In this document: one piece after another, positions 4,490-62,746 of the stretch
Layout of the letters: every line of letters begins with the position of its first letter
Numbering within the stretch: position 1 is the stretch's first letter
Assembly (NCBI GenBank): GCA_963814115.1
Contig: CAWFBS010000016.1
Coordinates: 256,431 to 320,430, forward strand
Length of the DNA: 64,000 nucleotides
Origin: an uncultured Chloroflexia bacterium
GTDB lineage: Bacteria > Chloroflexota > Limnocylindria > Limnocylindrales > CSP1-4
Direction: 5' to 3'
Notes under the pieces: generated by a model
Seen by the model: the letters and a program-made list of their open reading frames with translations, nothing else
What the model was told of the DNA's origin: nothing
The model's database searches: none
Made by a program: the position numbers and the translations under genes

Positions 4490-5140
4490 TCAGCCGGCGG
4501 GGAGCGGCGCACCCTCCAGCGGGGTTCCGAGCCGCGTGTCCGCCCGGTCCGGGTGGCCGGCTTCCCACGCCCGGATCTCCCCGAGCTTGTCCATCACGTA
4601 GCCGATCTCGTCCGTGCCGGCGAGCAGCATCCGCTTGGCGAACGGGTCGATCGTGAACTCGATCGTGGTGCCGTCGGGAAGGAGGATGCCCTCCTCGGCC
4701 AGGTCCACCGTGAGCTGGGCTTCGGGGTCGGCCGCGACCAGTTCGAAGAGCCGGGCGTGGGTGGCCACATCCACGACCACGGGCAGGACGCCGTTCTTCA
4801 GCGCGTTGCTGCGGAAGATGTCGGCGTAGGAGGTGGACAGGATCGTCCGGATCCCCCACGCGGCGAGCGCCCACGGGGCGTGCTCGCGGGAGGAGCCGGC
4901 CCCGAAATTGCCACCGACCAGCAGGATCTGGCGGCCTGCCATACCTGGCTGGTCCAGAACGAAGCGGGGCTCGCGGAGCGTGCCGTCCTCGTTGAAGCGC
5001 CAGTCGCGGAAGAGCGCATCCGCGAGGCCGGCCTTGTCGGTGACCTTCAGGTAGCGGGCGGGGACCACCTGGTCCGTGTCGACGTTCTCCTCGCGCAGCG
5101 GGACGACCCGGCTGGTGAACTGGCGGAACGGCTCGCTCAT
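4490..5140 (-). CDS. leuD: 3-isopropylmalate dehydratase small subunit
   Basis: MSEPFRQFTSRVVPLREENVDTDQVVPARYLK... is a classic LeuD N-terminus. The gene starts 3 nt after the leuC stop. Confidence 0.85.
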   Translation of the reverse strand: MSEPFRQFTSRVVPLREENVDTDQVVPARYLKVTDKAGLADALFRDWRFNEDGTLREPRFVLDQPGMAGRQILLVGGNFGAGSSREHAPWALAAWGIRTILSTSYADIFRSNALKNGVLPVVVDVATHARLFELVAADPEAQLTVDLAEEGILLPDGTTIEFTIDPFAKRMLLAGTDEIGYVMDKLGEIRAWEAGHPDRADTRLGTPLEGAPLPAG

Positions 5141-5142
5141 CC

Positions 5143-6592
5143 TCAATACCCTCGGCCGACCGCGACCGGCTGCTCCAAACCAGGGAGCGTGCGCGGATCG
5201 GTCACGACGCCGCTGAGCGCGCTGGCGGCGGCGGTCATCGGCGAGGCGAGGAACGTCCGGCCGCCCTTCCCTTGGCGTCCCTCGAAGTTGCGGTTGCTGG
5301 TGCTGATGGCGTACTGGCCGGGCCGCAGCTGGTCCCCGTTCATGGCGATGCACATGGAACAGCCGGCTTCGCGCCACTCCGCGCCGGCCGCGCGGAACAC
5401 GTCGTGGAGCCCCTCCCGTTCCGCCTGGGCCTTCACCTGCTGGGAGCCGGGGACGACCATGAGGCGCACGCCCTCGGCGACGTGCCGCCCGCGCAGGACG
5501 CCCGCCGCCAGCCGCAGGTCGCTGATCCGGCTGTTCGTGCAGCTGCCGATGAACACGACGTCAACCGGCTGGCCGGCGATGGCCTGGCCGGGCCGCAGAT
5601 CCATGTACGCCAGGGCGTGCTCCAGCGCGCGGCGGGCGGCAGGATCGGTGGCGTCCGCGGGATCCGGGACATGCCCGCTCACGGGGATCCCCATCCCGGG
5701 GTTCGTGCCGTAGGTGACCATCGGCTCGAGCGTGTCCGCGTCGAGGGTGATCGAGCGGTCGAAGACGGCGCCGTCGTCCGAGGGAAGGGTGCGCCAGCGT
5801 GCAACTGCCGCGTCCCAGGCGGGTCCCTGCGGGGCGTGCCGGCGGCCGTGGAGGTACGACGAACGTCGTGTCGTCCGGCGCGATGAGGCCGGCCCGCGCG
5901 CCGCCCTCGATGCTCATGTTGCAGATCGTCATCCGCTCCTCCATCGAGAGGGCTCGGATGGCGCCGCCGCGATACTCGAAGACGTGGCCCGTTCCGCCGC
6001 CGATCCCGATCCGGGCGATGAGCGCGAGGATGATGTCCTTGGCGCCGACGCCCGGCCGCAGGCGGCCGTCGACGCGGACCTCGTACGTCTTCGGATCGCG
6101 CTGGAGGAGTGTCTGGGTGGCGAGCACCATCTCCACTTCGCTCGTCCCGATCCCGAACGCGAGCGCCCCGAAGGCGCCATGGGTGGCCGTGTGGCTGTCG
6201 CCGCACACGATCGTCATGCCCGGCTGGGTCAGGCCCAGCTCCGGCCCGATCACGTGGACGATCCCCTGCGTGTCCGATCCCAGGGCGTGGAGCGGGATGC
6301 CGAACTGGGTGCAGTTGTCGGTGAGCTGCGCGATCTGGGCTGCGGCCATCTGGTCCACGATCGGGAGCCCGCGTGGCGTGGTGGGCGTGGAGTGGTCCGC
6401 GGTCGCCACCGTGCGATCCGGCCGGCGCACATGAAGGCCCCGCTCGCGCAGGCCGGTGAACGCCTGGGGGCTGGTGACCTCGTGGACGAGGTGGAGATCA
6501 ATCGCGAGGACGGCGGGTGAGCCTTCGTCCTGCGCGACGACGTGGTCGTCCCAGATCTTCTCGACGAGGGTGCGGGGTCGCAGGTCGGACAC
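5143..6592 (-). CDS. leuC: 3-isopropylmalate dehydratase large subunit, with an apparent +1 frameshift near 5855-5865
   Basis: The N-terminal part (EKIWDDHVV...[13 protein letters not shown]...APDDTTF) and the C-terminal part ([21 protein letters not shown]...[13 protein letters not shown]...CSMCIAMN) lie in different frames. Both are strongly LeuC-like. The break falls between TTF and YLHG. The GTG start at 6592 is tentative. Confidence 0.75.
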
Positions 6593-6781
6593 GATGCTCC
6601 ATCGGCTGCGGGTGCGGGGCAAGAGCGTAGCAAAGACGGCTCCTCCGGTCGCCGGGGACGTCCACGAGGGCTGCCGTACGAAAGTCCTGTCGCGGCAGGA
6701 CCATGGGGCGAGTGCCCGAACGCACCATTCCTGCGAGAACCTCGACGGCGGCCCGACGTCCGGGCCTCTCAGGATGTTCGA

Positions 6782-31505: not shown

Positions 31506-32448
31506 TCAGATCCCCCTGATCGACCGCGGCGCCATCCGCGGCCCGCGGCGCGGGGCATGGATTCCGGCGGCCTCGACGAGCCGGATCACCCGTGCTCGAT
31601 GGCCCGCATACGGCGCCAGGAGCTCCAGCATCCGCTCGTCGGTGCCGCGTGGCTCGCCCGCGAGCACCCAGCAGATCGCGTGGGAGAGGTGGAAGTCGCC
31701 GACGCTCACGGCGTCCGCGTCACCCAGCGCGCGGAGGCCCACTTCTGCCGCCGTCCAGGGCCCCACGAGCGGAAGGGCCCGCAGCCGCCCGTACGCCTCG
31801 GCCAGCGGCAGGTCCGACGCACTCCTCCACGCGGGCGGCGCGGGCGGCCGCAAAGCGGATCGCATCCGCGCGTCGTCGCTCCAGGCCGAGCGGGTGGTAC
31901 GCGTAGCCGGGCAGCCCGGCCAGCGTCTCCGGCGCCGGCGGCAGGCGCAGTGGTGCGGGGCGGCGGGAGGAGGGCTCGTCCCAGGGGCCCGGCGCCGGCT
32001 CGCCGTGCCGTCGGACAAGCGCCACGAACGCCGAGCGCGCCTCGTCGCCCGTCACCTTCTGCTCGATGATCGCCGGGACGAGTGCCTCAAAGACCCGGCG
32101 CGTCCGGCCGATCCGGACCCCAGCGAACCGCGCGTGCAGGTCGCGAAGCAGGGCGTGGCCGGCGACGAGTGCCGCGAACCCGGCGGCGTCGTCGTCGGCG
32201 CCGAGCAGCTCGGGCGCCTGTTCGATCGCCCAGCCCGCGCCCGGTCCCCACGCCTGCGCCCGGATCATGTCGCCGTCGGGGATTAGCCGCAGGGTGGCCG
32301 GCCCATCCGGCGTGCGCGTCGCCCGCCACGTCGAGCCATCCCGCGAGTAGCGCAGCGTCGGATCGCCGGGGCCGCGCCGGTGGATCGCGAGCGTCAGGCG
32401 CACGTCGACGGGAACCCCGGGCTCGATTCGACGGACGAGTGGCTCCAT
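31506..32448 (-). CDS. DNA-3-methyladenine glycosylase II-like protein (AlkA family, HhH-GPD), with an apparent frameshift near 31820-31830
   Basis: The N-terminal AlkA_N-like part (MEPLVRRIEPG...) and the HhH-GPD part (LPLVGPWTAAEVGLRALGDADAVSVGDFHL) lie in different frames. Confidence 0.6.
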
Positions 32449-33326: not shown

Positions 33327-34333
33327 CTACTCGCCGATCCGGACGATCCAGCGGCCACGCGCGCGCCCGGCCAGGATCCCGTCGAGCGCCTCGGGGAGCG
33401 TGTCGAGCGTCACGTCCGTCAGGCCCTCGCCGAGGCCGTTGGGGCGCAGGTCGCCGCCGAGCCGCGCCCAGATCGCGCGTCGCTCGGCGATCGGGACCTG
33501 GGCGGAGTCGATGCCGAGCAGCGCCGCGCCGCGCAGGATGAACGGGAAGACCGTCGTCGCGAAACCCGGCCCACCCGCGTTGCCGGAGGCCGCGACCGAC
33601 GCGTCGCGCCGGAGCGTGCGAAGGATGTAGGGGAGCGTGGCGCCGCCCACGCAGTCCACGGCACCCGCCCAGCGCTCCGCCTCGAGGGCGCGCGGGCTCT
33701 CGGCAGTCACCTCCGCGCGGTCGATCACCGTCGGCGGCGCCCAGCCCGCGCAGCCGGTCCGCCTCGTCCGGCTTCCCGGTCGCCGCGACGACCTCGTAGC
33801 CGCGCGCGGCCAGGATCCCGACCGCGACGCTTCCCAGCCCGCCAGACGCGCCGGTCACGAGGACCGGCCCCGTTCCCGGGCCGCAGGCCGCGCTCCTCGA
33901 GCCGGATCACCGAATGCGCGGCGGTGAAGCCGGCCGTCCCGAGCGCCATCGCCAGCCGCGGCGTCAGCGCCTGGGGCAGCGGCACCACCCAGCCGGCCGG
34001 CACCCGCGCGTATTCCGCGAAGCCGCCGTGCCGGCTGACGCCCAGCTCGTAGCCGTGGGCAAGCACTGCGCTGCCCGGCGGGATGGCCGCGTCCGCGCTG
34101 GCGACGACCTCCCCGGCCATGTCGATCCCCGGGATGAGCGGGCTGATCCGGGCAACCTTGCCGCCGGCGATCGCCGCGAGGGCATCCTTGTAGTTGACGC
34201 CCGACCAGAGGACCCGGATCTCCACTTCGCCGGGAGGCAGGTCGGCCTCCCCGAACTGCCGGACGCCGCGAGTGACGGTGTCACCGTCCTTCTCGGCGAT
34301 GAAGGCGCGGAACGTGGCGGGGATCGCGGTCAT
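33327..34333 (-). CDS. MDR-family NADPH:quinone / enoyl reductase (YhdH/AcuI-like), with two apparent single-base frameshifts
   Basis: Three consecutive frames carry contiguous homologous segments: ...GVNYKDALA...GIDMAGEV..., then [33 protein letters not shown], then ...VDCVGGATL... One shift sits in a G run (cccgggaacgggg). Confidence 0.6.
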
Positions 34334-34384
34334 CGGCGGCTCCCGGTGATGTGGCGTCCGTGGATGCGGCGAGCTCGGTTCCCG

Positions 34385-40975: not shown

Positions 40976-42207
40976 ACAGGGCGTCGCGTGCCCAGGGCGC
41001 CCGGGGAGCCTCGGTCGACGATCGGCTTCGCGTCGCGTTCCTGGCACCGTCCCTTCATCCGGGAGGCGCCGAACGTCAGATGCTGATCCTTGCGGCGGCG
41101 TTGCCGAAGGCCACGTTCGATCTCCGCTTTCTCCTTCTCTCGGAGCCGGGCGATCTTGCCGCCGAAGCAGCAGCCCTTGGCGTGCCGGTCCACGTCCTGG
41201 GCCTCCGGCGCGAGACGTGCCGGACGTTCACCCCTCGCTGCCTCGGGGATGCTGCACGCGCTCTCCGCGCATACCGGGGGCTCACCCGGGACGTCGACAT
41301 CGTCGATGCGTGGTTGGTGCCTGCCTACACATTTGCCGGGTTGGTCCAGCCTCTCGCTCGGGTCCCCGTTCTCCTGGCCGGCCGCCGATCGACCGTCGAT
41401 GTCAACCGCACGCGGACGTGGTACCGGGAGGCAGCAGGGCGTCTCGCCATGCGTGGCATCGACGCGATCGTCGCCAATTCACAGGCCGCCGCGAACAACG
41501 CAATTGCCGTCGAGCGGATCGATCCGGCGCGCATCCACGTGATTCGGAACGCGGCGGTCCCGATCGAGACGACAGACGCCGAGCGGCTTCGACTGCGGCA
41601 CGCGTGGGGCTTCTTACCGCAGGACGTCGTGGTGGGATGCGTCGGCAACTTCAAGCCGGGCAAGGGCCACCTCGCGCTCGTCGAGGTGGCAGGTCGCCTC
41701 CGAGATCAGTGCCCGAGCCTCCGCTGGTGCTTCGTCGGCGATGGCCCGCTGCGACCAGAGCTCGAGGACGACATTCGCCGCCTTGGCCTCGACACGATCG
41801 TCCGGCTCCATTCCGGGGAACCGGATGCTCGCCGGGTCTACGGTGCCTTCGACATCGACGTCCAGGCGTCCGACAGCGAGGGACTTCCGAATGCCGTCCT
41901 CGAGGCGGCTTCGGCAGGCCTTCCGATCGTCGCCACGGCCGTTGGCGGGACCGCGGAGGTCTTGACCGATGGTGCGGATGGGCTCCTTGTGCCGAAGGGC
42001 GACCGACCCGCGCTTCTGGCGGCGATCGGGCGTCTGGCGGAGGACCGCGAGCTGCGCCATCGCCTCGGCAGGGCGGCCCAGGCGAGGGCAATGGACTTCT
42101 CGCCCGCGCGCCTGGCCGAGCAGACCGGAGAGCTCTACCTGCGACTCGCCCGCGGGGTCTCAGGCGCGGTCGCCGCCCTGGAGCCTCCACTCGGCAGGCA
42201 GTCTTGA
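40972..42207 (+). CDS. GT1 (GT4-like) glycosyltransferase
   Basis: ASDSEGLPNAVLEAASAGLPIVAT is the E-x7-E-containing C-terminal domain. The start overlaps the upstream stop as ATGA. Confidence 0.75.
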   Translation: MNRASRAQGARGASVDDRLRVAFLAPSLHPGGAERQMLILAAALPKATFDLRFLLLSEPGDLAAEAAALGVPVHVLGLRRETCRTFTPRCLGDAARALRAYRGLTRDVDIVDAWLVPAYTFAGLVQPLARVPVLLAGRRSTVDVNRTRTWYREAAGRLAMRGIDAIVANSQAAANNAIAVERIDPARIHVIRNAAVPIETTDAERLRLRHAWGFLPQDVVVGCVGNFKPGKGHLALVEVAGRLRDQCPSLRWCFVGDGPLRPELEDDIRRLGLDTIVRLHSGEPDARRVYGAFDIDVQASDSEGLPNAVLEAASAGLPIVATAVGGTAEVLTDGADGLLVPKGDRPALLAAIGRLAEDRELRHRLGRAAQARAMDFSPARLAEQTGELYLRLARGVSGAVAALEPPLGRQS

Positions 42208-43070
42208 TTGAGCAGCAACGCCGGTAAGCCCCGCGCCGGCGTCGAGAACCGTGATGCTGCCCGGCTTGGCCACCATGCCCAGCTCGACACCCGCCTGGGC
42301 CAGTCCAGGCTCGGTGGCGAACAGGAAGAGCTGTCGTCCAGCCCGGACGGCTCGCGCCAGGAGAGCCGCCACCGCAGGCGACGGATTCTGGCCCTCGATC
42401 CACAGGACCCGATCGGAGGCGGCGGCGCGCTCCACCAGACAGTGACAGCCGGCCGCGACCAGTACCTCGACCGGCAGCGGCCGGTCCAGGTACTGTGAGA
42501 TCCACACATCGAGCTTCGGATACACGACGTAGGCGCCCGTGCCTTCAGCTTGCCAGCGCCTGTGGGCGCGGCGCAGCTCATCGACCGTCAACGTGCTTGG
42601 CTCGACCGCGCTGGCCGTGGTGGGGGGGAGGTTTCCGCGTTCGACGCCACGTACCAGGTCGGGACTTCCAGGCACCCGGCCGCGACCAGGCGCCGTCGAC
42701 TGGCATTCTCTCGGGTCACGAAGGCCGTCAGCACGGTCCCGCCGCGGTCGGCGACGAGCCGCCTGGACTCTTCGATCACCAGGGAGAACGCACCGTGCCC
42801 GCGGGCCTCGGGGAGCGTCCACGAACCGGTCATGATCCCGACGAGGAGCACCTCGTCCCGGTAGCGCACCGTCCGATATGAGACCGCCGAACCCGCCACG
42901 ATCCTGCCCTGATCCCGCAGGACCATGAGGTCGGCGACGCGGGCACCCACCTGGCGCTCGAAGTCCCACGAGTACATCGAGCGGTCTCCCCAGCGGCCGA
43001 AGCTGCGGTTCAGGCCGGCGAGGTAGTCATCCTCCAGCCCGCGCGGGTTCACCTCGATGTCCAGAACCAT
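42160..43070 (-). CDS. GNAT-fold acyltransferase (FemAB/CelD-like, Acetyltransf_6), with an apparent frameshift near 42640
   Basis: The N-terminal 160 aa in one frame (..IVAGSAVSYRTVRYRDEVLLVGIMTGSWTLPEARGHGAFS..) continue in another frame (..STLTVDELRRAHRRWQAEG..). Confidence 0.45.
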
Positions 43071-49353: not shown

Positions 49354-51066
49354 TCAGGCGTGCAGGCGCCGGCGAATCGCCCGCACCGTCGCCGAGCTGC
49401 TCCAGGCCCATCGCTTGCCATCCACCAGCGTCACATCCCCGACGCCGGTCAACGTGTGGAGTCCAGCGGGGAACGAGCCCCCACGCTCTGCCTCCAGGAA
49501 GCAGACGAACTCCTCCTCGAACGACGCCGTTGTCAGGGTGTGGATCCGCTTGACCGCCAGGCGATCGCCATACCCGGTCGAGCAATCCTGGGCGGGGCGG
49601 TAGAGCTGCCCGTCCACGCTGAAGAACGGCCCCGCGGGGCGGGCCGATCGAACGTCGACCAGGATAGGGTTGAGCGGATGCTCCTGCCAGGGACCCTCCG
49701 GCTGGTCGGCAAACCAGAGGAACAGCTCCGTCGCCGGGTTCAGGCGGTCGGCGCGGACGGCGAACAGCCACCACCGGTCCGCGTGGTGGAGCAGCGTCGA
49801 ATCGGCCAGGTCCATGCCCAGCCCAAGCTCGGCCGAGTGACGCCAGGCGCCACCGGTTCGGTCAGCTTCGTACAGCGCGAGCTTCCCCGAGGCGCGCGAC
49901 TCCGGGAGCATCATCCGGCGGCCGTCGTGCTCGAACAGGAACGGGTAGGAGAGGTGGCTGCCGATCTCGAGCACCGGCTCGGGTGCCGCCCACCCCTCGT
50001 CCCGGGTCCACCGCCTCCGCGCGATCGACGCGAAGCCTCGCGGGCGAGAGTAATCCTCGTAGAACACGTCCAGCGACGCGCCGTCCCATCGGCCGAACGG
50101 GTCGGCCGCGTAGTGGCCTCGGCGCGCCGGGGCCCAACGCACCGCCGGGATCGAGCGGCGTGCAAGGATGGATGCAACCGGAGCGTCGACGACTCCTATG
50201 TTCCAGTCGTCGTGGCGCAGGCCGTGGTGCCAGTACTTCAGCAGTCGCGCCCTGCCCGTACCGGCGAGGAACCGCAGGATCGGGACCACTGTGAGGGTCC
50301 TGCCGGGGGCCGCTGCCGTCGACGCTGACGACTGTCCTTGCACGCTCGCCGTCCCCAACCGGATCGCACGGCAAATCTGGGCGGGCCAGGCCGCCGGCCC
50401 CAGCAAGAGCCGGTCGCGCGTCAAGGCGTAGCTTTCTGGAGCCACGGCGAACCAACCCTTCCGCAGGACCACTCCGCTGATCCCTTCGGCCTCGCGTCGC
50501 AGAACCGCCCCAACAGTCGACTGCCCGTCCACGAGCTCCCAGAAGCCCGGAGGTTGGCCTCGATAGAGCGCTCCGTCTCCGTGATGGAACCTCCAAACCC
50601 CGAGGTTGGATGCTTCGAGGGCACCACCGCCGAGGTCCTCGAAGCCGAAGGCGATCAGGAACTCCAAACGGTATGCCCGGATAGCCTCGATATCCTCGGC
50701 ACGCAAGACGAGCCCGAGCTCGGCCCGCAAGGGTGACACCCGCATGACGGGAACGGTCTGCGACCATGGCATGGCCGTGGACGGCCGGAGGGCGCGGGGG
50801 CGCGACATGCGGGTCGAGTACGCATGGAATGCAGCCGTTTCGGCTCGCGCGCTCGTCGAGCGTCGAGGGCGCGCCCGTCGATATCCCGTACCCACGCCCC
50901 GGCTCGTGCCGGAGCGAACGACGACCAGAGCGAGCTCGGCATCGCCCGACGCCCGCAGGTGCTCGATGACGGACGCCTGCCAACCATTGACCGCTGCCGA
51001 GTCGAGCAGCACGCCGTAGCGCAACGGAGGGAGGGCCACCGGGTCCACTTCGCTCACCTCGCTCAC
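49354..51066 (-). CDS. Two-domain protein: formyltransferase-like N-domain plus GH43-like beta-propeller C-domain (function unknown; possibly a glycan-modifying enzyme)
   Basis: The N-terminal LGVWRFHHGDGALYRGQPPGFWE resembles the formyltransferase catalytic motif. The C-terminal half has WxxF/DG repeats typical of 5-bladed propellers. Confidence 0.4.
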   Translation of the reverse strand: MSEVSEVDPVALPPLRYGVLLDSAAVNGWQASVIEHLRASGDAELALVVVRSGTSRGVGTGYRRARPRRSTSARAETAAFHAYSTRMSRPRALRPSTAMPWSQTVPVMRVSPLRAELGLVLRAEDIEAIRAYRLEFLIAFGFEDLGGGALEASNLGVWRFHHGDGALYRGQPPGFWELVDGQSTVGAVLRREAEGISGVVLRKGWFAVAPESYALTRDRLLLGPAAWPAQICRAIRLGTASVQGQSSASTAAAPGRTLTVVPILRFLAGTGRARLLKYWHHGLRHDDWNIGVVDAPVASILARRSIPAVRWAPARRGHYAADPFGRWDGASLDVFYEDYSRPRGFASIARRRWTRDEGWAAPEPVLEIGSHLSYPFLFEHDGRRMMLPESRASGKLALYEADRTGGAWRHSAELGLGMDLADSTLLHHADRWWLFAVRADRLNPATELFLWFADQPEGPWQEHPLNPILVDVRSARPAGPFFSVDGQLYRPAQDCSTGYGDRLAVKRIHTLTTASFEEEFVCFLEAERGGSFPAGLHTLTGVGDVTLVDGKRWAWSSSATVRAIRRRLHA

Positions 51067-51236
51067 CCTCTTGTCGGCGCGCCTTCGGGCCGCCCTGCCG
51101 GATCTTCGTCGTTACCGCCGCCGGTCGCTCGGGGAGCCCCGGCCACAGTGGCGTCCGCTCCTCACGTTATCTCATCGACGGTCGAATCCGCCCCAAGGCC
51201 GAGCGCCGGGTCGCCGCCCTCCCCGCCGCCCGGCGC

Positions 51237-52458
51237 TCAGAGCGCGATGTCGTTGCCGCTGACCGTCCGGGTGCCCGTGGTTCCCGTGTCGCGGAGGAGC
51301 GCCGCGCCGCTGGCGGTGGGCTGGGGGTTGCCCGTGACGGTGAGATTCTGCACGTTGGCGAGGTAGATGACGGCGGTGCTCGATGGGCGGGTATCGTCGT
51401 CGGCGGTGGTGTTGTTCGTGATGACCACGTTCGTCTTGCGGTTGGTCTTGTCGGCCCGGATCCCGAGGCCGCCGAGGCCGTCGGCGTTGCCGTTGTCGGC
51501 GGTCGCCGCGCCGAAGTGGACGCGGTTCCCGTCGATCGTGAGGCCGTCCATGGGCGCCGTCGCCGAGGACGGCGTCCTGGGGGTTGGCCGCCACGAACCA
51601 GCTCGTCAGCGTCTGGCCCCAGCCGTAGTGCGTGACGTCGTTGTTCGAGATCGAGCACGTTCTGGAAGCCGCCGCCGGCGGATTGGCTCGAGTCCGGCTC
51701 GAGGTCGATGGCGCTGTCCACGGAGTCGTTGATCGGCGTTGTGGACGATCTGCACGTTCTGCGCGGCGACGATGCCGATGCCCATCTCGCCGCCCCGGAT
51801 CACCGAGTCGTGGATCGAGATGTTGGTCGGCCAGGTGGTCCCGCCGTCGGCGCTGAGCAACGGGCCGAAGCCGCGCAGGCGGTCCAAGGTGACGTGGTCG
51901 AACTCGATGAACGAGCAGCCCGCGCGGATGACGGCCGCGTTCATGTGCTCGTTGACGGCCGAGCCCGCCGCCGTCGTGCCGGTGGCCGGGTTGCCCCCGT
52001 CGACGGCGAAGCCGCGGACCAGGATGTGGGTGCTGTTCTGGAGGAAGAAGCGCGGAGGAGAAGTTGGTGGCCCCGCTGGTCCGCAGCTGGAGCGTGCCCC
52101 CGGTGCCGATCAGGGACAGGCCGGTCCGCCCGGTGAGGTTCAGGCCGGCATCGCCGCCGAGCTGGTAGCACGAGCCGGCCGGGAAGATCAGCGTGCTCCC
52201 GTTCTGCTGCGCCGCGATCCAGGCGTTGAGCGCCGGGCTCGCGTTCGTCGCGCAGGTCGCGTCGATCGAGGCGGGCACGGTGACGCCGACGGGCGACGGC
52301 GACGGGCTCGGGCTGGCCGACGGCGACGGGCTCGGGCTGGGCGTCGCCGAGGGGCTCGGGCTCGGTGTGAGAATGACGATAGTGGATGCCACGAGCGCGA
52401 CGAAGGCAGCCATCTCGGGCACCAGGCTGCGCTTGGACAATAGACGTCCGAATCTCAT
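51237..52458 (-). pseudogene. Decayed copy (copy 1) of the tandem beta-helix surface protein gene
   Basis: The N-terminus (membrane anchor, SPSPS linker, start of the beta-helix) matches copies 2 and 3. After that, four or more single-base insertions relative to copies 2 and 3 break the frame into ORF fragments (51237-51551, 51606-51944, 51941-52171). Confidence 0.6.
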
Positions 52459-52639
52459 GAATGCGCCATCAACACCCCTCTGCCGTCGAATTGGCGTCAG
52501 GGCCCGTACGGGAGCACCGAGGTTCAGCTACCACACCTTGGCCGACCAATGGACCGGACGATCTCCGCCGCGAGCCACCCGGACTCGTCCTTCCTGAGCG
52601 GACGTTCATGTCGTTGGGATCATGGCCGTCGCCCGGCGC

Positions 52640-54160
52640 TCAGAGCGCGATGTTGTTGCCGCTGACCGTCCGGGTGCCCGTGGTTCCCGTGTCGCGGAGG
52701 AGCGCCGCGCCGCTGGCGGTGGGCTGGCGGTTGCCCGTGACGGTGAGATTCTCGACGTTGGCGAGGTTGATGACGGCGGTGCTCGAGGGGCGGGTATCGT
52801 CGTCGGTGGTGGTGTTGTTCGTGATGACCACGTTCGTCTTGCGGTTGCTCTTGTCGGCCCGGATCCCGAGGCCGCCCAGGCCGTCGGCGTTGCCGTTGTT
52901 GGCGGTCGCCGCGCCGATGTGGACCCGGTTCCCGTCGATCGTGAGGCCGTCCATGGTCGCCGTCGCGAGGACGGCGTCCTGGGGGTTGGCCGCCACGAAC
53001 CAGCTCGTGAGCGTCTGGCCCCAGCCGTAGTTCGTGACGTCGTTGTTCGAGATGAGCACGTTCTGGAAGCCGCCGCCGTAGCCGGGCTCGCCGTTGGTCC
53101 CTGGCTGGGTGAAGTCCGGCTCGAGGTCGATGGCGCTGTCCACGGAGTCGTTGATGGCGTTGTGGACGATCTGCACGTTCCGCGCGGCGACGATGCCGAT
53201 GCCCATCTCGCCGCCCCGGATCACCGAGTCGTGGATCGAGATGTTGGTCGGCCAGGTGGTCCCGCCGTCGGCGCTGAGCAACGGGCCGAAGCCGCGCAGG
53301 CGGTCCCAGGTGACGTGGTCGAACTCGATGAACGAGCAGCCCGCGCGGATGACGGCCGCGTTCATGTGCTCGTTGACGGCCGAGCCCGCCGCCGTCGTGC
53401 CGGTGGCCGGGTTGCCCCCGTCGACGGCGAAGCCGCGGACCAGGATGTGGGTGCTGTTCTGGAGGAAGAACGCGGAGGAGAAGTTGGTGGCCCCGCTGGT
53501 CCGCAGCTGGAGCGTGCTGCCGGTCCCGATCAGGGACAGGCCGGTCCGCCCGGTGAGGTTCAGACCGGCATCGCCGCCGAGCTGGTAGCACGAGCCGGCC
53601 GGGAAGATCAGCGTGCTCCCGTTCTGCTGCGCCGCGATCCAGGCGTTGAGCGCCGGGCTCGCGTTCGTCGCGCAGGTCGCGTCGATCGAGGCGGGCACGG
53701 TGGATCGGACGATCACCGAGATCCGAACGTGTGCCGTCGTGGCAGGTGGGCTGATCCGGGAGTTGGCCCGGTACAGCGCTACGGCGGCGGCCGTGATGTA
53801 GCCGAAGGTAACGGTGTGGCTCCCGGCGGTCGCTTCACGAGGGATCCGAAGTTGGGCTACGAACCGACCGGCGCGGTCCACCGAGATGAAACGGAGGTGC
53901 GCGGTCGCCGCGTCCCAGCGAGCCTCGAGGATCGTGGTCGCCCTGAAGCCGGTCCCGCTCATCGTGACGAGCAGTCCGGGCTGCGCCTCGCCCTGCACTG
54001 TGACCCGGTAGGTGGTCGCGTCGACGTCGGGGGCGGCAAGCGCGGCGAATGCCGGGGTGGCGAGGACAACCGCCAGCAGCACGACGCGGACAGGTCGTCC
54101 TAGCCTGCCGCGACGGGCAGTCGTCCATCGGCCGACCTCGGTCGCCGTCCGGTCCACCAT
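52640..54160 (-). CDS. Secreted right-handed parallel beta-helix (pectin-lyase-fold) protein, copy 2 (N-terminal Ig-like domain)
   Basis: Signal peptide. Beta-helix repeats (IHDSVIRGGEMGIGIVAARNVQIVHNAINDSVDSAIDLE...). The C-terminal roughly 400 aa are near-identical to copy 3. Confidence 0.7.
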   Translation of the reverse strand: MVDRTATEVGRWTTARRGRLGRPVRVVLLAVVLATPAFAALAAPDVDATTYRVTVQGEAQPGLLVTMSGTGFRATTILEARWDAATAHLRFISVDRAGRFVAQLRIPREATAGSHTVTFGYITAAAVALYRANSRISPPATTAHVRISVIVRSTVPASIDATCATNASPALNAWIAAQQNGSTLIFPAGSCYQLGGDAGLNLTGRTGLSLIGTGSTLQLRTSGATNFSSAFFLQNSTHILVRGFAVDGGNPATGTTAAGSAVNEHMNAAVIRAGCSFIEFDHVTWDRLRGFGPLLSADGGTTWPTNISIHDSVIRGGEMGIGIVAARNVQIVHNAINDSVDSAIDLEPDFTQPGTNGEPGYGGGFQNVLISNNDVTNYGWGQTLTSWFVAANPQDAVLATATMDGLTIDGNRVHIGAATANNGNADGLGGLGIRADKSNRKTNVVITNNTTTDDDTRPSSTAVINLANVENLTVTGNRQPTASGAALLRDTGTTGTRTVSGNNIAL

Positions 54161-54389
54161 GCTCAGCCACCCTCAACTGATGGGCCGCCTTCTGGTCCCG
54201 AGTACCGCGACCGCACGGCCGCGCAAAACGGACTCGGAGACTGTGGGGCCGGCCCGGGGCCGGCCCATTGCAGTAGCCAACCGCCCGAGTCTACCGGGGA
54301 ATGCGAGGAATGGCGACCCGAGGGTCTGACGCAATCTCCGGCACCACGCGCTCACATCGAGGCCTGCCGCCCTCCCCGCCGCCCGGCGC

Positions 54390-56144
54390 TCAGAGCGCGA
54401 TGTTGTTGCCGCTGACCGTCCGGGTGCCCGTGGTTCCCGTGTCGCGGAGGAGCGCCGCGCCGCTGGCGGTGGGCTGGCGGTTGCCCGTGACGGTGAGATT
54501 CTCGACGTTGGCGAGGTTGATGACGGCGGTGCTCGAGGGGCGGGTATCGTCGTCGGTGGTGGTGTTGTTCGTGATGACCACGTTCGTCTTGCGGTTGCTC
54601 TTGTCGGCCCGGATCCCGAGGCCGCCCAGGCCGTCGGCGTTGCCGTTGTTGGCGGTCGCCGCGCCGATGTGGACCCGGTTCCCGTCGATCGTGAGGCCGT
54701 CCATGGTCGCCGTCGCGAGGACGGCGTCCTGGGGGTTGGCCGCCACGAACCAGCTCGTGAGCGTCTGGCCCCAGCCGTAGTTCGTGACGTCGTTGTTCGA
54801 GATGAGCACGTTCTGGAAGCCGCCGCCGGCGGATTGGCTCGAGTCCGGCTCGAGGTCGATGGCGCTGTCCACGGAGTCGTTGATGGCGTTGTGGACGATC
54901 TGCACGTTCCGCGCGGCGACGATGCCGATGCCCATCTCGCCGCCCCGGATCACCGAGTCGTGGATCGAGATGTTGGTCGGCCAGGTGGTCCCGCCGTCGG
55001 CGCTGAGCAACGGGCCGAAGCCGCGCAGGCGGTCCCAGGTGACGTGGTCGAACTCGATGAACGAGCAGCCCGCGCGGATGACGGCCGCGTTCATGTGCTC
55101 GTTGACGGCCGAGCCCGCCGCCGTCGTGCCGGTGGCCGGGTTGCCCCCGTCGACGGCGAAGCCGCGGACCAGGATGTGGGTGCTGTTCTGGAGGAAGAAC
55201 GCGGAGGAGAAGTTGGTGGCCCCGCTGGTCCGCAGCTGGAGCGTGCTGCCGGTCCCGATCAGGGACAGGCCGGTCCGCCCGGTGAGGTTCAGACCGGCAT
55301 CGCCGCCGAGCTGGTAGCACGAGCCGGCCGGGAAGATCAGCGTGCTCCCGTTCTGCTGCGCCGCGATCCAGGCGTTGAGCGCCGGGCTCGCGTTCGTCGC
55401 GCAGGTCGCGTCGATCGAGGCGGGCACGGTGACGCCGACGGGCGACGGCGACGGGCTCGGGCTGGCCGACGGCGACGGGCTCGGGCTGGGCGTCGCCGAG
55501 GGGCTCGGGCTCGGCGTCGCCGAGGGGCTCGGGCTGGGCGTCGCCGAGGGGCTCGGGCTGAGCGACGGCGCGAGCGTGGTGAGCGTGAAGTCAGCGGATA
55601 CCGACGTATACCCGGCTGCATCCCGGGACTTCACGCGATAGTGATACAAGGCGCCCGCATCGAGGCCGGCCACCTGTTGCGTGTGAAGAGAGGATGTGAG
55701 GGAGAGGTCTGGAGCCGTCATGCTGCCGTAACCACTGGTGAGGCCGTATTCCACCTGCCCCGTGGTGGGCTCGTTCACGCTCCACGAGATCTGGGCGCTC
55801 TTCTGGGTAATCGCGCTTGCCCTGACGGCGCTGATCGTGGGACCAAACGGCGTTGGCGTCGGCGTGGGGGTGGGCTTCGGAGTCCGGGTAGGCTGCGGGC
55901 TTGGCGCGGCGGTTGGTTTCGGGTGCTGGTGGCCACCCCGACCAGCCGACGGGCCCCACTGTGCCGCGATGGCCTGATTGGGGGATCTGGACGCGGCGTT
56001 CGTCGCCACAAAGGGGATCGCAAGGGCAATGATCCCGGTGATCATGACTCCGGTCGCGATCCAGTCGCGCGCCCGGCGGCGGCTTGCGGTGGAAGGGGTC
56101 TCGGACGCAAGACTGTCCGTCCAGCGTGTTCCGTTCCAGAACAT
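54390..56144 (-). CDS. Membrane-anchored beta-helix protein, copy 3 (N-terminal transmembrane helix, FN3 domain, (SPSPSATP)n linker, beta-helix)
   Basis: FN3-like ISWSVNEPTTGQVEYG...YHYRVKSRDAAGYTS, then SPSPSATPSPSPSATPSPSPSATPSPSPSPSASPSPSPSP, then a beta-helix identical to copy 2. Confidence 0.7.
   Translation of the reverse strand: MFWNGTRWTDSLASETPSTASRRRARDWIATGVMITGIIALAIPFVATNAASRSPNQAIAAQWGPSAGRGGHQHPKPTAAPSPQPTRTPKPTPTPTPTPFGPTISAVRASAITQKSAQISWSVNEPTTGQVEYGLTSGYGSMTAPDLSLTSSLHTQQVAGLDAGALYHYRVKSRDAAGYTSVSADFTLTTLAPSLSPSPSATPSPSPSATPSPSPSATPSPSPSPSASPSPSPSPVGVTVPASIDATCATNASPALNAWIAAQQNGSTLIFPAGSCYQLGGDAGLNLTGRTGLSLIGTGSTLQLRTSGATNFSSAFFLQNSTHILVRGFAVDGGNPATGTTAAGSAVNEHMNAAVIRAGCSFIEFDHVTWDRLRGFGPLLSADGGTTWPTNISIHDSVIRGGEMGIGIVAARNVQIVHNAINDSVDSAIDLEPDSSQSAGGGFQNVLISNNDVTNYGWGQTLTSWFVAANPQDAVLATATMDGLTIDGNRVHIGAATANNGNADGLGGLGIRADKSNRKTNVVITNNTTTDDDTRPSSTAVINLANVENLTVTGNRQPTASGAALLRDTGTTGTRTVSGNNIAL
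55437..55565 (-). repeat. Ser/Pro/Thr/Ala-rich repeat linker ((SPSPSATP)n) within beta-helix copy 3
   Basis: A ggcgacggcgacgggctcgggctg-type 24-bp repeat in the DNA. The same linker occurs in copy 1. Confidence 0.5.
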
Positions 56145-56528: not shown

Positions 56529-57551
56529 CTACGGTCGCCGGTACAACGGGAAGTACCCGCTCCGGTCAGCCGGATCGAGGGCTGGGTCGACGGCCTCGAC
56601 AAGGCGCCGGTACGCCTGCTCATCGATGACGATCCGGAGCGTGCTGAACGGGTGGTGAAGCGGCGAGAAGCCATCCTTGAAGTGCAGGAGCGAGTCACTG
56701 CCGGCGCCGACGCCCCCCCCGAGGTGCAGGTACCGATCGCCCCGGGCTTTCGCCCAGCCAATCACGAACTGCATCATCAGCTTCGTCGGCTGGGCGTTCA
56801 TTGCCGCGTCGCTCGTCCCCGAGAGATGGTATTGCACGATGCGACAGGTCTCCGCGTACAGGCCCGCCGCGGCAATCTCGCCTTCCCGCTCGACTAGGCA
56901 CAGGTGGAGCCGATCGCGGAGCGCGTCACGCAACCCGTCGAAGTACGCATCGTCGAAGAAGTAGAACTGGTTCGCGGAGCGACGTTCCATCGTCGCCCGG
57001 TACAGTTCCTTGAACGAATTGAGGTGGGTCCACGTCTCGTCCATCCGGGCGACATACCCGAGTCGCACAGCCCGCTTGATGCCACGCCGATGATCGACGC
57101 GCATCTGTTCCCGCAAGACTTCGCCAGGCAGGGAAAGGTCGACGCTGACCGTGTCACCGTGGTACACGACCGTGCCGATCCCGGAAGGGGGCACCGGGTT
57201 GAGCAGTGGGTGAAGGCGTACGAAGGCCGACACCACACCGGCTGCGCGGAGCACCTGGACGCCGGCGGCAAGGGCTTCGCGAAGAAAGGTCGCATCCCCG
57301 GTTCCGCGCACCAGGGGTCCCGGATACCCGTACGGCGACGTCGCGTCGAGGCCGCCGCCGGGAATGCTCCGAGTGATGAGCGGGAGCAGCATCGCGTTGC
57401 CGTTGGCGGCGACCAACAGTCCCCGCGGCTCCCCACGTTCCTGCGCCGCGCACAGGGCGACGTAGGGCGGGAGGTGGTAGAAGTCGTGGTCCGTCTCCTC
57501 CAGGAAGGATGTCCACGCCGGTGCGTTGACATCCAGAAGCTCACCCTTCAT
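56529..57551 (-). CDS. FemAB-family / GNAT-fold aminoacyl- or acyl-transferase (Acetyltransf_6)
   Basis: 340 aa with a two-GNAT-lobe organisation: ...NAMLLPLITRSIPGGGLDATSPYGYPGP... and LHLGGGVGAGSDSLLHFKDGFS. Confidence 0.55.
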   Translation of the reverse strand: MKGELLDVNAPAWTSFLEETDHDFYHLPPYVALCAAQERGEPRGLLVAANGNAMLLPLITRSIPGGGLDATSPYGYPGPLVRGTGDATFLREALAAGVQVLRAAGVVSAFVRLHPLLNPVPPSGIGTVVYHGDTVSVDLSLPGEVLREQMRVDHRRGIKRAVRLGYVARMDETWTHLNSFKELYRATMERRSANQFYFFDDAYFDGLRDALRDRLHLCLVEREGEIAAAGLYAETCRIVQYHLSGTSDAAMNAQPTKLMMQFVIGWAKARGDRYLHLGGGVGAGSDSLLHFKDGFSPLHHPFSTLRIVIDEQAYRRLVEAVDPALDPADRSGYFPLYRRP

Positions 57552-62056: not shown

Positions 62057-62746
62057 ATGGGCAGCCACGCGAGTCGAAGACGGACCCGGCTCGGTATCAA
62101 GCGGCTCATCGACGTCGCGGGCGCGGCGACGGTCGCTGTCGTCCTGTTGCCCGTGGTGGTCTGGGTGGCGCTGGGCGTGGCCCTCACCGAGGGGTTCCCG
62201 ATCCTCTTCCGCCAGGAGCGGCCCGGTCTCCGCGGCAAGTCGTTCACGATCTTCAAGTTCCGGACAATGCGCTCTCCCCGACCGGACGAAGTGTGGTACC
62301 TCACGGATGACCAACGCGTCACCCGGTTCGGTCGGTTCCTCCGCACGACGAGCCTCGACGAGCTGCCGGAACTTTGGAACGTCCTGCGCGGGGAGATGAG
62401 CCTCGTGGGACCGCGTCCGCTCCTGACCGAGTATTTGGCGACCTACGCGCCTGACGAGCGGCGGCGACACGACATGCGGCCGGGTATCACGGGCTGGACC
62501 GCCGTGAACGGACGCAATGTGCTCCAGTTCCGTGACCGGCTCGAGCTCGACCTCTGGTACGTCGACCATTGGAGCCTCGGGCTGGACATGCAGATCCTGG
62601 GAATGACCGCGATCCAGGTGCTGCGGCGAACCAACGTCTCGGCTACCGAGGACAAAGGCCTGGGGTTTCCGCTGCCCGGGGTCGAGACCGGCGCGGCCGG
62701 CCAGCCCGATACGCTTGGCGATCCGACCGACGGTGCCAAGTCCTAG
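62057..62746 (+). CDS. Small bacterial sugar transferase (initiating phosphoglycosyltransferase, PglC/WbaP C-terminal-like)
   Basis: A single N-terminal membrane helix. IFKFRTM...DELPELWNVLRGEMSLVGPRP is the Bac_transf signature. Confidence 0.8.
   Translation: MGSHASRRRTRLGIKRLIDVAGAATVAVVLLPVVVWVALGVALTEGFPILFRQERPGLRGKSFTIFKFRTMRSPRPDEVWYLTDDQRVTRFGRFLRTTSLDELPELWNVLRGEMSLVGPRPLLTEYLATYAPDERRRHDMRPGITGWTAVNGRNVLQFRDRLELDLWYVDHWSLGLDMQILGMTAIQVLRRTNVSATEDKGLGFPLPGVETGAAGQPDTLGDPTDGAKS

Follow-up and report, generated by a model that had tools for sequence, protein, structure and literature searches.

The 64,000-nucleotide stretch analysed here (hereafter the window) belongs to contig CAWFBS010000016.1 of assembly GCA_963814115.1, from an uncultured, high-GC soil Chloroflexia bacterium, and carries on its minus strand, between positions 51237 and 56144, three tandem genes which share a C-terminal beta-helix domain and differ in their N-terminal parts. 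The best explanation, to which a probability of roughly 0.7 was assigned, is that this array is old and conserved, that its beta-helix is a displayed glycan-processing domain kept uniform among the copies by gene conversion, and that the frameshifts in one copy are likelier to be consensus errors than true lesions.

The layout of the array was established from the open reading frame (ORF) listing, a repeat finder, a three-way MAFFT alignment and self-BLASTN, which agreed on three head-to-tail minus-strand units at 51237-52458 (copy 1), 52640-54160 (copy 2) and 54390-56144 (copy 3), as the initial annotation of this DNA had described. Copy 3 is an intact ORF of 584 amino acids (aa), identical to database protein P0001, and runs from the start MFWNGTRW through a transmembrane anchor, an FN3 domain and a Ser/Pro (SP) linker to the beta-helix. 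Copy 2 is also intact (506 aa, P0002) and consists of a signal-like N-terminus, an immunoglobulin (Ig)-like beta-sandwich and the beta-helix. In the public protein collection both P0001 and P0002 are assigned to a contig of 321,853 nt. Copy 1 has a short transmembrane anchor, an SP linker shorter than that of copy 3, and the beta-helix; its start, anchor and linker are intact, and its frame is broken further on by four +1 insertions. These differing N-termini correspond to what had been noted before.

The shared 3' part was delimited by BLASTN as two homology blocks, regarded here as putative conversion blocks. The block between copies 1 and 3 (51213-52368 against 54366-55517, minus strand) covers 1,156 nt at 97.75% identity with 22 mismatches and 4 gaps, takes in part of the SP linker, and continues ~25 nt past the stop codon. 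The block between copies 2 and 3 (52626-53702 against 54376-55431, minus strand) contains 4 mismatches and one 21-nt loop indel and continues 10 nt past the stop codon. The near-identity through the stop codon was therefore as expected, while the expected length of about 1.2 kb was somewhat too high, the measured values being 1.05-1.16 kb. In the alignment, the beta-helix domains of copies 2 and 3 differ only in the loop after the motif D-L-E-P-D. For copy 1, where at least four insertions and extra substitutions had been claimed, the DNA-level alignment of the three units gave exactly four insertions and, in the 1,050-nt domain, 21 substitutions relative to copies 2 and 3 (8 synonymous and 13 non-synonymous). 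The domain of copy 3 (54393-55439, minus strand; 349 aa) was taken as reference. A scan for promoters and terminators between the copies yielded nothing informative.

The age of the array was judged from related loci (L001-L006) in uncultured Chloroflexia metagenome-assembled genomes (MAGs) of the Microflora Danica (MFD) and in ENA metagenome contigs, among which L005 (ERZ25039489 contig_63234) is the closest relative of the window. By tblastn, L001 has five copies at the same syntenic site, and L002, L004, L005 and L006 have three each. Each array is flanked by DegT, methyltransferase (MT) and FemAB-like genes on one side and by GINT1_N-like, family 4 glycosyltransferase (GT4), MurJ-like flippase and epimerase genes on the other. 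The gene order in L005 is that of the window: MT, FemAB-like gene, FN3-bearing copy, Ig-like copy, short-anchored copy and GINT1_N-like gene. Between the window and L005 the N-terminal modules of copies 3 and 2 are 64% and 56% identical, with a synonymous divergence (dS) of ~0.9-1.0, and the third copies are alike in their short anchor and Pro/Thr (PT)/SP linker; the flanking genes have a dS of 0.62-0.85 and an amino acid identity of 59-90%. Because the same architectures, order and orthologous N-termini are found in L005, the array predates the split of the lineages. Judged by this synteny, it is old and conserved, with three genes here and three to five in relatives. The recent duplication proposed in the initial annotation does not fit these data, since the same site is filled in five relatives and, for each of the three N-terminal architectures, a positional ortholog is present in L005. 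The modularity of the N-termini stands, but their shuffling after duplication does not, because the modules are orthologous between genomes and hence old. An independent recent duplication in each genome was also considered, and was rejected since the N-terminal modules are positional orthologs.

In the beta-helix part, copies within one genome are closer to each other than to their counterparts in other genomes. At the protein level, copies of one genome share 87-100% identity and copies of different genomes 70-77% (with one outlier, L004c, at 55%); at the nucleotide level the blocks of the window and L005 are 89-90% identical between the genomes and 97-99% identical within each. The N-termini and flanking genes, in contrast, are orthologous between genomes. 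The differences between copies 1 and 3 are unevenly distributed: 15 of the 21 fall in the last 393 nt (p = 0.0016), and the two copies agree fully in the linker and over the first ~146 nt of the domain. Read from the alignment, this pattern is a mosaic of conversion tracts. Together with the GC enrichment described below, these features indicate that the C-terminal block has evolved in concert since the lineages split, and we infer gene conversion as the mechanism, in agreement with the conversion between copies suggested initially. In the proposed mechanism, homology-dependent gene conversion would repeatedly homogenise the beta-helix block (and part of the linker in copies 1 and 3), the non-homologous N-terminal modules would halt the conversion tracts, and conversion would drive the GC content at third codon positions (GC3) of the block to ~0.98.

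Within single genes the N-terminal modules have a GC3 of 0.77-0.82, and the linker and beta-helix reach 0.96-1.0 (0.983 taken together, and likewise 0.983 in the reference domain of copy 3); the neighbouring locus genes have values of 0.79-0.86. A sharp GC3 step was seen at the block boundary, the high-GC3 stretches being 54393-55574 and 52643-53702 (minus strand). The same step is present in L001, L002, L004 and L006, and L004c, the sole copy that is not homogenised, has a GC3 of only 0.884. Expression-linked codon bias can be excluded as the cause, because both halves of a gene share one transcript, and GC-biased gene conversion is the simplest reading of the step. The low divergence of the block weighs against this picture: its dS between the window and L005 is 0.22-0.25, which is 3-4 times below that of the flanking genes, and divergence at four-fold sites is 0.21 in the block and 0.39-0.45 elsewhere. 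A third position with nearly two states (G or C) under GC-biased conversion may account for the low value, but a recent exchange of the block between lineages would also explain it.

The loop directly after the invariant D-x-E-P-D motif occurs in two forms. It reads SSQSAGGG in copy 3 (54780-54800 region) and FTQPGTNGEPGYGGG in copy 2, whose long-loop variant FTQPGTNGEPGY is encoded at 53078-53113 (minus strand); copies 1 and 3 both have the short form. In L006, copies a and c have the long form and copy b the short one, and the long form is also found in L004. As the two forms have been kept despite conversion on both sides, selection or a heterology barrier to conversion is suggested. A more speculative and so far tentative extension is a 'specificity-synchronised' enzyme set, in which one glycan-recognising module is held identical across three displays, the loop dimorphism is balanced by selection and, maybe, cassettes are exchanged between lineages. 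If this is true, a specificity change tracking the fast-evolving polymer of the locus would spread to all copies via GC-biased conversion, the long and short loops would represent a balanced functional difference, and the 3-4-fold synonymous deficit could mean cassette exchange of the module between related lineages.

Frameshifts were searched for with a codon-score dynamic-programming scan that permits frameshifts, since a simple GC3 frame plot was too crude. The scan recovered all four insertions of copy 1, namely a C at 52050 (GCG[C]TTC) and a G at 51734 (GCC[G]ATC), 51652 (CTC[G]ATC) and 51564 (CTC[G]GCG), all on the minus strand, and also flagged positions 5857, 33865 and 33729. The first of these lies in a leuC-like gene (5143-6640, minus strand; aconitase-family large subunit) with a +1 insertion at ~5857 (GTC[G]TAC); after removal of one base the gene gives a continuous Aconitase match over positions 1-463 of 463 (578 bits). 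The adjoining leuD-like gene (4490-5140) is intact. The other two, ~33865 and ~33729, are insertions 136 nt apart which spread a Zn-dependent dehydrogenase/quinone-oxidoreductase-like gene (33327-34342, minus strand) over three frames, and the repaired protein matches ADH_N and ADH_zinc_N. Each of the seven lesions adds a single G or C (+1); six lie outside homopolymers (33865 is in a G run), and most create a CpG. Flags on the antisense ('shadow') strand and in overlapping gene pairs (11796, 48096, 40873 and 17363) were discarded as not credible. Two further candidate frameshifts, at ~31821 (31506-32409) and ~42632 (42160-43064), both on the minus strand, gave no confirming Pfam match after repair, only a weak GNAT one.

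Such insertions are also present in the closest relative. Every beta-helix copy of L005 carries 2-5 of them, GTC[G]ATC being shared by two copies and GGG[C]AAC by all three; two of the insertions in copy 1 are of the GTC[G]ATC type. The DegT, methyltransferase and glycosyltransferase (GT) genes of L005 are split across frames as well. Over the whole locus of L005, at 14525-18250 of L002 and at 8373-9471 of L003, conserved genes (DegT, GT4, flippase, methyltransferases) contain many frame breaks; gene calls from these contigs are unreliable when uncorrected. The MFD MAGs were assembled from Nanopore reads only, with Flye and one Medaka round (PMC12313526). After repair, copy 1 is full-length, reads through without a stop codon and retains E114 and D195-L-E197-P-D199. 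Its substitutions are mostly shared, 15 of the 21 being states found in homologs of other genomes (including W135L, N220H, N308Y and N346D) and about six being unique (including R321P). Therefore, most of the 'extra substitutions' should be paralog variation that escaped conversion and not decay. With the +1 signature shared by the leuC-like gene, the dehydrogenase gene and L005, the decay of one copy claimed in the initial annotation becomes doubtful. Long-read consensus errors are the more probable origin of the four frameshifts, and true pseudogenisation is the less probable one, with a share that is still considerable.

Several observations weigh against an error origin. Copies 2 and 3 have no insertions despite identical local contexts, and the four insertions of copy 1 fall within 490 nt, ~80 times as dense as the background in the window (about 3 per 60 kb); a density so far above background beside clean copies 2 and 3 makes a real pseudogene plausible. 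Moreover, the sequencing platform of the window is presumed from that of its relatives only. The alternative that survives best keeps the conserved and homogenised array and takes copy 1 as a true pseudogene, recently inactivated in this strain, for which the few unique non-synonymous changes at conserved sites of copy 1 speak as well. It is possible rather than probable, because the mutational signature equals that of the evident errors in the leuC-like and dehydrogenase genes, L002 and L004 have intact orthologs of this short-anchored last copy, and the repaired ORF, free of stop codons, retains every conserved residue that is a candidate for catalysis. With four indels to six unique substitutions, natural decay would also have been implausibly rich in indels.

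The function of the domain was approached through its fold. The AlphaFold2 (AF2) model of the shared domain, with the alignment as input, is all-beta with regular short strands and forms a right-handed beta-helix (predicted local distance difference test, pLDDT, 97.7; predicted template modelling score, pTM, 0.94). Foldseek against the PDB returned 140 matches at E <= 1e-3, with beta-helix proteins throughout among the matches listed. RbmB was the best match (E = 8e-9, template modelling score, TM, ~0.6), followed by members of glycoside hydrolase (GH) family 110, PfbA, GH28, AlgE4, GH87 and the HK620 tailspike. With the full-length model of copy 2, RbmB was again the best match, and VexL, AlgG and the K1 capsule lyase were also found; a viral structure library gave phage glycosidases and tailspikes. 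The beta-helix fold predicted initially is thus supported by both the model and its structural matches.

Sequence-based searches gave fewer matches. The hidden Markov model (HMM) check proposed in the initial annotation failed for PF13229 and PF12708 directly on the window proteins (copies 2 and 3 do not match PF13229 at E <= 0.1) and succeeded for PF13229 at the level of the family, where 42 of the 64 aligned members match (best E = 3.7e-17); NosD (PF05048) matches 11 of the 64. NCBIfam scans of copies 2 and 3 returned only rhamnogalacturonidase (E = 0.0036) and, on the SP linker, TonB, both far under the cut-offs. A phmmer search of the domain against PDB sequences gave chance-level matches only, and a profile search of the same sequences gave weak matches to GH110 (1e-4), the endopolygalacturonase 1k5c (2e-3) and AlgE4 (0.11); RbmB was retrieved by neither. 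An exhaustive homolog search found 808 cluster representatives at E <= 1e-3, of which 32 at E <= 1e-30, and homologs are abundant in metagenomes. In the family alignment E197 and P198 show no variation, D195 and E114 occur in >93% of members, and D195, E114, D199 and D161 are kept in 86-97%. An Asn ladder (N216, N254, N292 and N320) is conserved across the family, and the acidic motif D195-x-E197-P-D199 persists in members as distant as 31-38% identity. The ratio of non-synonymous to synonymous change (omega) between the window and L005 is 0.27-0.31.

Because of the conserved acidic cluster (E114, D161, D195-x-E197-P-D199) and the structural neighbours, the domain was read as glycan-processing. 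Tethered to the surface, it would probably act as an enzyme on the glycan of its own locus, most likely by depolymerising it (as a lyase or hydrolase) and less likely as an epimerase. The catalytic motif of AlgG-like proteins, which the initial annotation had named among the models to run, is absent: the domain has DLEPD and not DPH(D/E). In the proposed scheme the N-terminus would tether or export each protein, a Pro/Ser/Thr-rich spacer would come next in copies 3 and 1, and the C-terminal right-handed parallel beta-helix of ~345 residues would process the polymer made by the locus. The same catalytic module would then be presented in three displays, i.e., on an anchor with FN3 and a long linker, behind a signal peptide and an Ig-like domain, and on a short anchor with a short linker. 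By analogy, it may cleave the self-made polymer as RbmB does with the Vibrio polysaccharide VPS and VexL with Vi antigen.

Three points speak against this enzymatic reading: neither Pfam nor NCBIfam gives copies 2 and 3 a beta-helix match, the resemblance to characterised enzymes is confined to the fold (11-15% identity), and the non-catalytic adhesin PfbA is among the top fold matches. The proteins might instead be non-catalytic surface structures such as adhesins, fibres, or sheath or S-layer-like components; FN3, Ig-like, collagen-like and TSP3 modules on long PT/SP stalks are typical of surface fibres. This is considered unlikely, because E197 is invariant and D195, D199 and E114 are conserved even in the distant members mentioned above, and because the best and most numerous fold matches are depolymerases of exopolysaccharides (EPS) or capsules, glycosidases and epimerases. 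In addition, several of these enzymes are encoded in polysaccharide loci, and the position of the array is fixed inside a glycan biosynthesis operon.

A recent local triplication, followed by acquisition or shuffling of N-terminal modules and then by genuine decay of copy 1, is improbable. The near-identity of the three 3' blocks would be expected from it, as would the confinement of the frameshifts and 21 substitutions to copy 1 when copies 2 and 3 are clean in the same contexts, the copy-1-unique changes at conserved positions (R321P in GNRQP, S65G, R177Q and I258F), and an omega between copies 1 and 3 of 0.56 (calculated from only 21 changes), which exceeds the between-genome value. However, L005 with the same architectures and order and an N-terminal dS of ~0.9-1.0 places the duplication before the genome split, and arrays of 3-5 copies exist in four further assemblies. 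The copy-1 differences found in homologs (15 of 21) are also at odds with it, and all four lesions are +1 insertions outside homopolymers, which is atypical of natural decay and resembles the leuC-like and dehydrogenase insertions in the window. An assembly artefact, in which one or two real genes were expanded or collapsed into the three units, is very improbable, since, although near-identical 1-kb repeats are difficult to assemble and consensus errors occur elsewhere in the same assembly, every unit has its own 5' module and the inter-unit spacers are unique, copy 2 has a private loop variant, and the same three-gene order is found in the independent assembly L005, with multi-copy arrays in four others. 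Expansion was rejected on the unique 5' modules and junctions of each unit and the agreement of independent assemblies; a collapse, with more copies in reality, is conceivable.

Among the N-terminal modules, the FN3 domain of copy 3 (55575-55832, minus strand; aa ~105-190) was delimited by Pfam stretches at 105-184 and 111-190. The fn3 and Pur_ac_phosph_N matches are sub-threshold in copy 3, and fn3 is above threshold in the ortholog P0035; positional orthologs of the domain are in the first array gene of L001 (56% identical), L004 (40%) and L005 (64%). The Ser/Pro(/Thr/Ala) linker of copy 3 (55437-55574, minus strand; repeat family D4) has a 24-nt periodicity and a GC3 of 1.0. Both SP linkers (55416-55589 and 52267-52392) are made of 24-nt (8-aa) repeats, ~5 units in copy 3 and ~3 in copy 1; otherwise identical, they vary in repeat number. 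Copy 2 lacks a long Ser/Pro repeat linker. Its beta-sandwich (IPT/TIG-like) module (53795-54013, minus strand; aa ~50-122) has AF2 strands over residues 52-122, and in the full-length model residues 1-48 are disordered (pLDDT < 50), 50-122 form the beta-sandwich (~90) and the rest is beta-helix. Similar modules are present in P0098 (63%), P0010, P0032, P0026 and P0020, with sub-threshold TIG matches to this type of module in the homologs P0020 and P0021. Other family members have collagen-like (PF01391), TSP3 or extensin-like N-termini. A motif M(T)FWNGT(R/A)W at the N-terminus of copy 3 (56120-56144, minus strand) precedes the transmembrane anchor and is also found in L001 (1730 and 8204), P0110, P0113, P0114, P0118 and P0021, recurring even where the family beta-helix is only ~35% identical. 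Judged from this recurrence, it could be a sorting or topology signal.

Pfam matches of the surrounding genes place the array in a Wzx/Wzy-type surface-glycan or exopolysaccharide locus, in line with the glycan locus assumed initially. These genes include Bac_transf (62084-62746), two methyltransferases, a DegT aminotransferase, three GT4, a MurJ-like flippase, an epimerase/dehydratase and a BY-kinase-like gene. Directly downstream of the array is the GINT1_N-like gene (49354-51066, minus strand; 570 aa; PF24793, E = 1.3e-31), a constant downstream neighbour in six loci (the window, L001, L002, L004, L005 and L006), and directly upstream is the FemAB/GNAT-like gene (56529-57551, minus strand; Pfam FemAB and Acetyltransf_6), which is syntenic in L002 and L005. 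A UDP-sugar dehydrogenase, sought as support for a lyase and an acidic polymer, comes right after the array in L001 (11860-13194) and L004 (12789-14108), and none was found in the window or the remaining loci. Therefore, the acidity of the polymer may differ between lineages.

The array is an uncharacterised case of two known kinds, polysaccharide-locus beta-helix carbohydrate-active proteins and concertedly evolving tandem paralogs. Among the first kind, RbmB is a lyase of Vibrio cholerae VPS (PDB 9ozl/9ozd), with a proposed base K227 activated by E253 and beta-elimination of a uronate-containing polymer (PMC12993940, PMC11637428). Like the array domain, it is a right-handed beta-helix of ~350 residues encoded among the genes for the exopolysaccharide it cleaves, and it is the best match of both models (E ~1e-8, TM ~0.6). 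However, the structural alignment has 11-13% identity with no HMM-level relationship, K227 and E253 could not be mapped onto the array family, and RbmB is a single-copy protein of a Gram-negative host, without tandem array or transmembrane, FN3 and SP-linker modules. The PF13229/CASH type (including NosD-like PF05048) resembles the family in the 42 and 11 of 64 matches and in the conserved Asn ladder. In contrast, the window proteins are under detection (E > 0.1), and the array family is a narrow subfamily with its own D-x-E-P-D motif and no assigned function. GH28, GH110, GH87 and AlgE4/AlgG share the fold and give weak profile matches, but their family-defining catalytic motifs are absent from the array family. 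For example, in the profile alignment to 1k5c the QDD of GH28 is opposite GGEMG, whose Glu is not conserved at >= 75% in the array family, so that the catalytic Asp of GH28 has no conserved counterpart there, and GHG is opposite AID. The AlgG/AlgE C5-epimerases differ by the DLEPD in place of DPH(D/E), and the AlgE4 profile match is at E = 0.11.

Tandem secreted beta-helix paralogs that cleave polysaccharides are known from the pelADE and pelBC clusters of Dickeya. These resemble the array in being tandem beta-helix paralogs, but they are diverged in sequence and specificity and not homogenised, act on host pectin and not on a self-made polymer, and have no variable N-terminal display modules. 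Concerted evolution of surface-protein paralogs by gene conversion is known from Helicobacter pylori babA/babB and Neisseria opa. The array differs from both in that the homogenised part is a putative catalytic domain, the genes are head-to-tail inside a biosynthetic operon, and nothing points to phase or antigenic variation. For mammalian gene pairs, conversion that is long-lived and accompanied by GC enrichment has been described (PMC2720389). Conversion systems of these kinds are like the array in having paralogs closer within a genome than orthologs between genomes, conversion confined to the homologous part, and GC enriched in the tracts.

The array offers a clean bacterial example of concerted evolution limited to one domain, and the step of GC3 from 0.8 to 0.98 inside one and the same gene lends itself naturally to testing for GC-biased gene conversion in bacteria. 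As +1 insertions are found in housekeeping genes of this window and of its relatives, a frameshifted paralog in a long-read MAG should be called a pseudogene only where reads support the lesion. For the family itself, the analysis defines an uncharacterised beta-helix subfamily of ~800 cluster representatives, mostly from soil metagenomes, which is a fixed part of a surface-glycan locus in uncultured Chloroflexia and for which E197, D195, D199 and E114 are the candidate residues.

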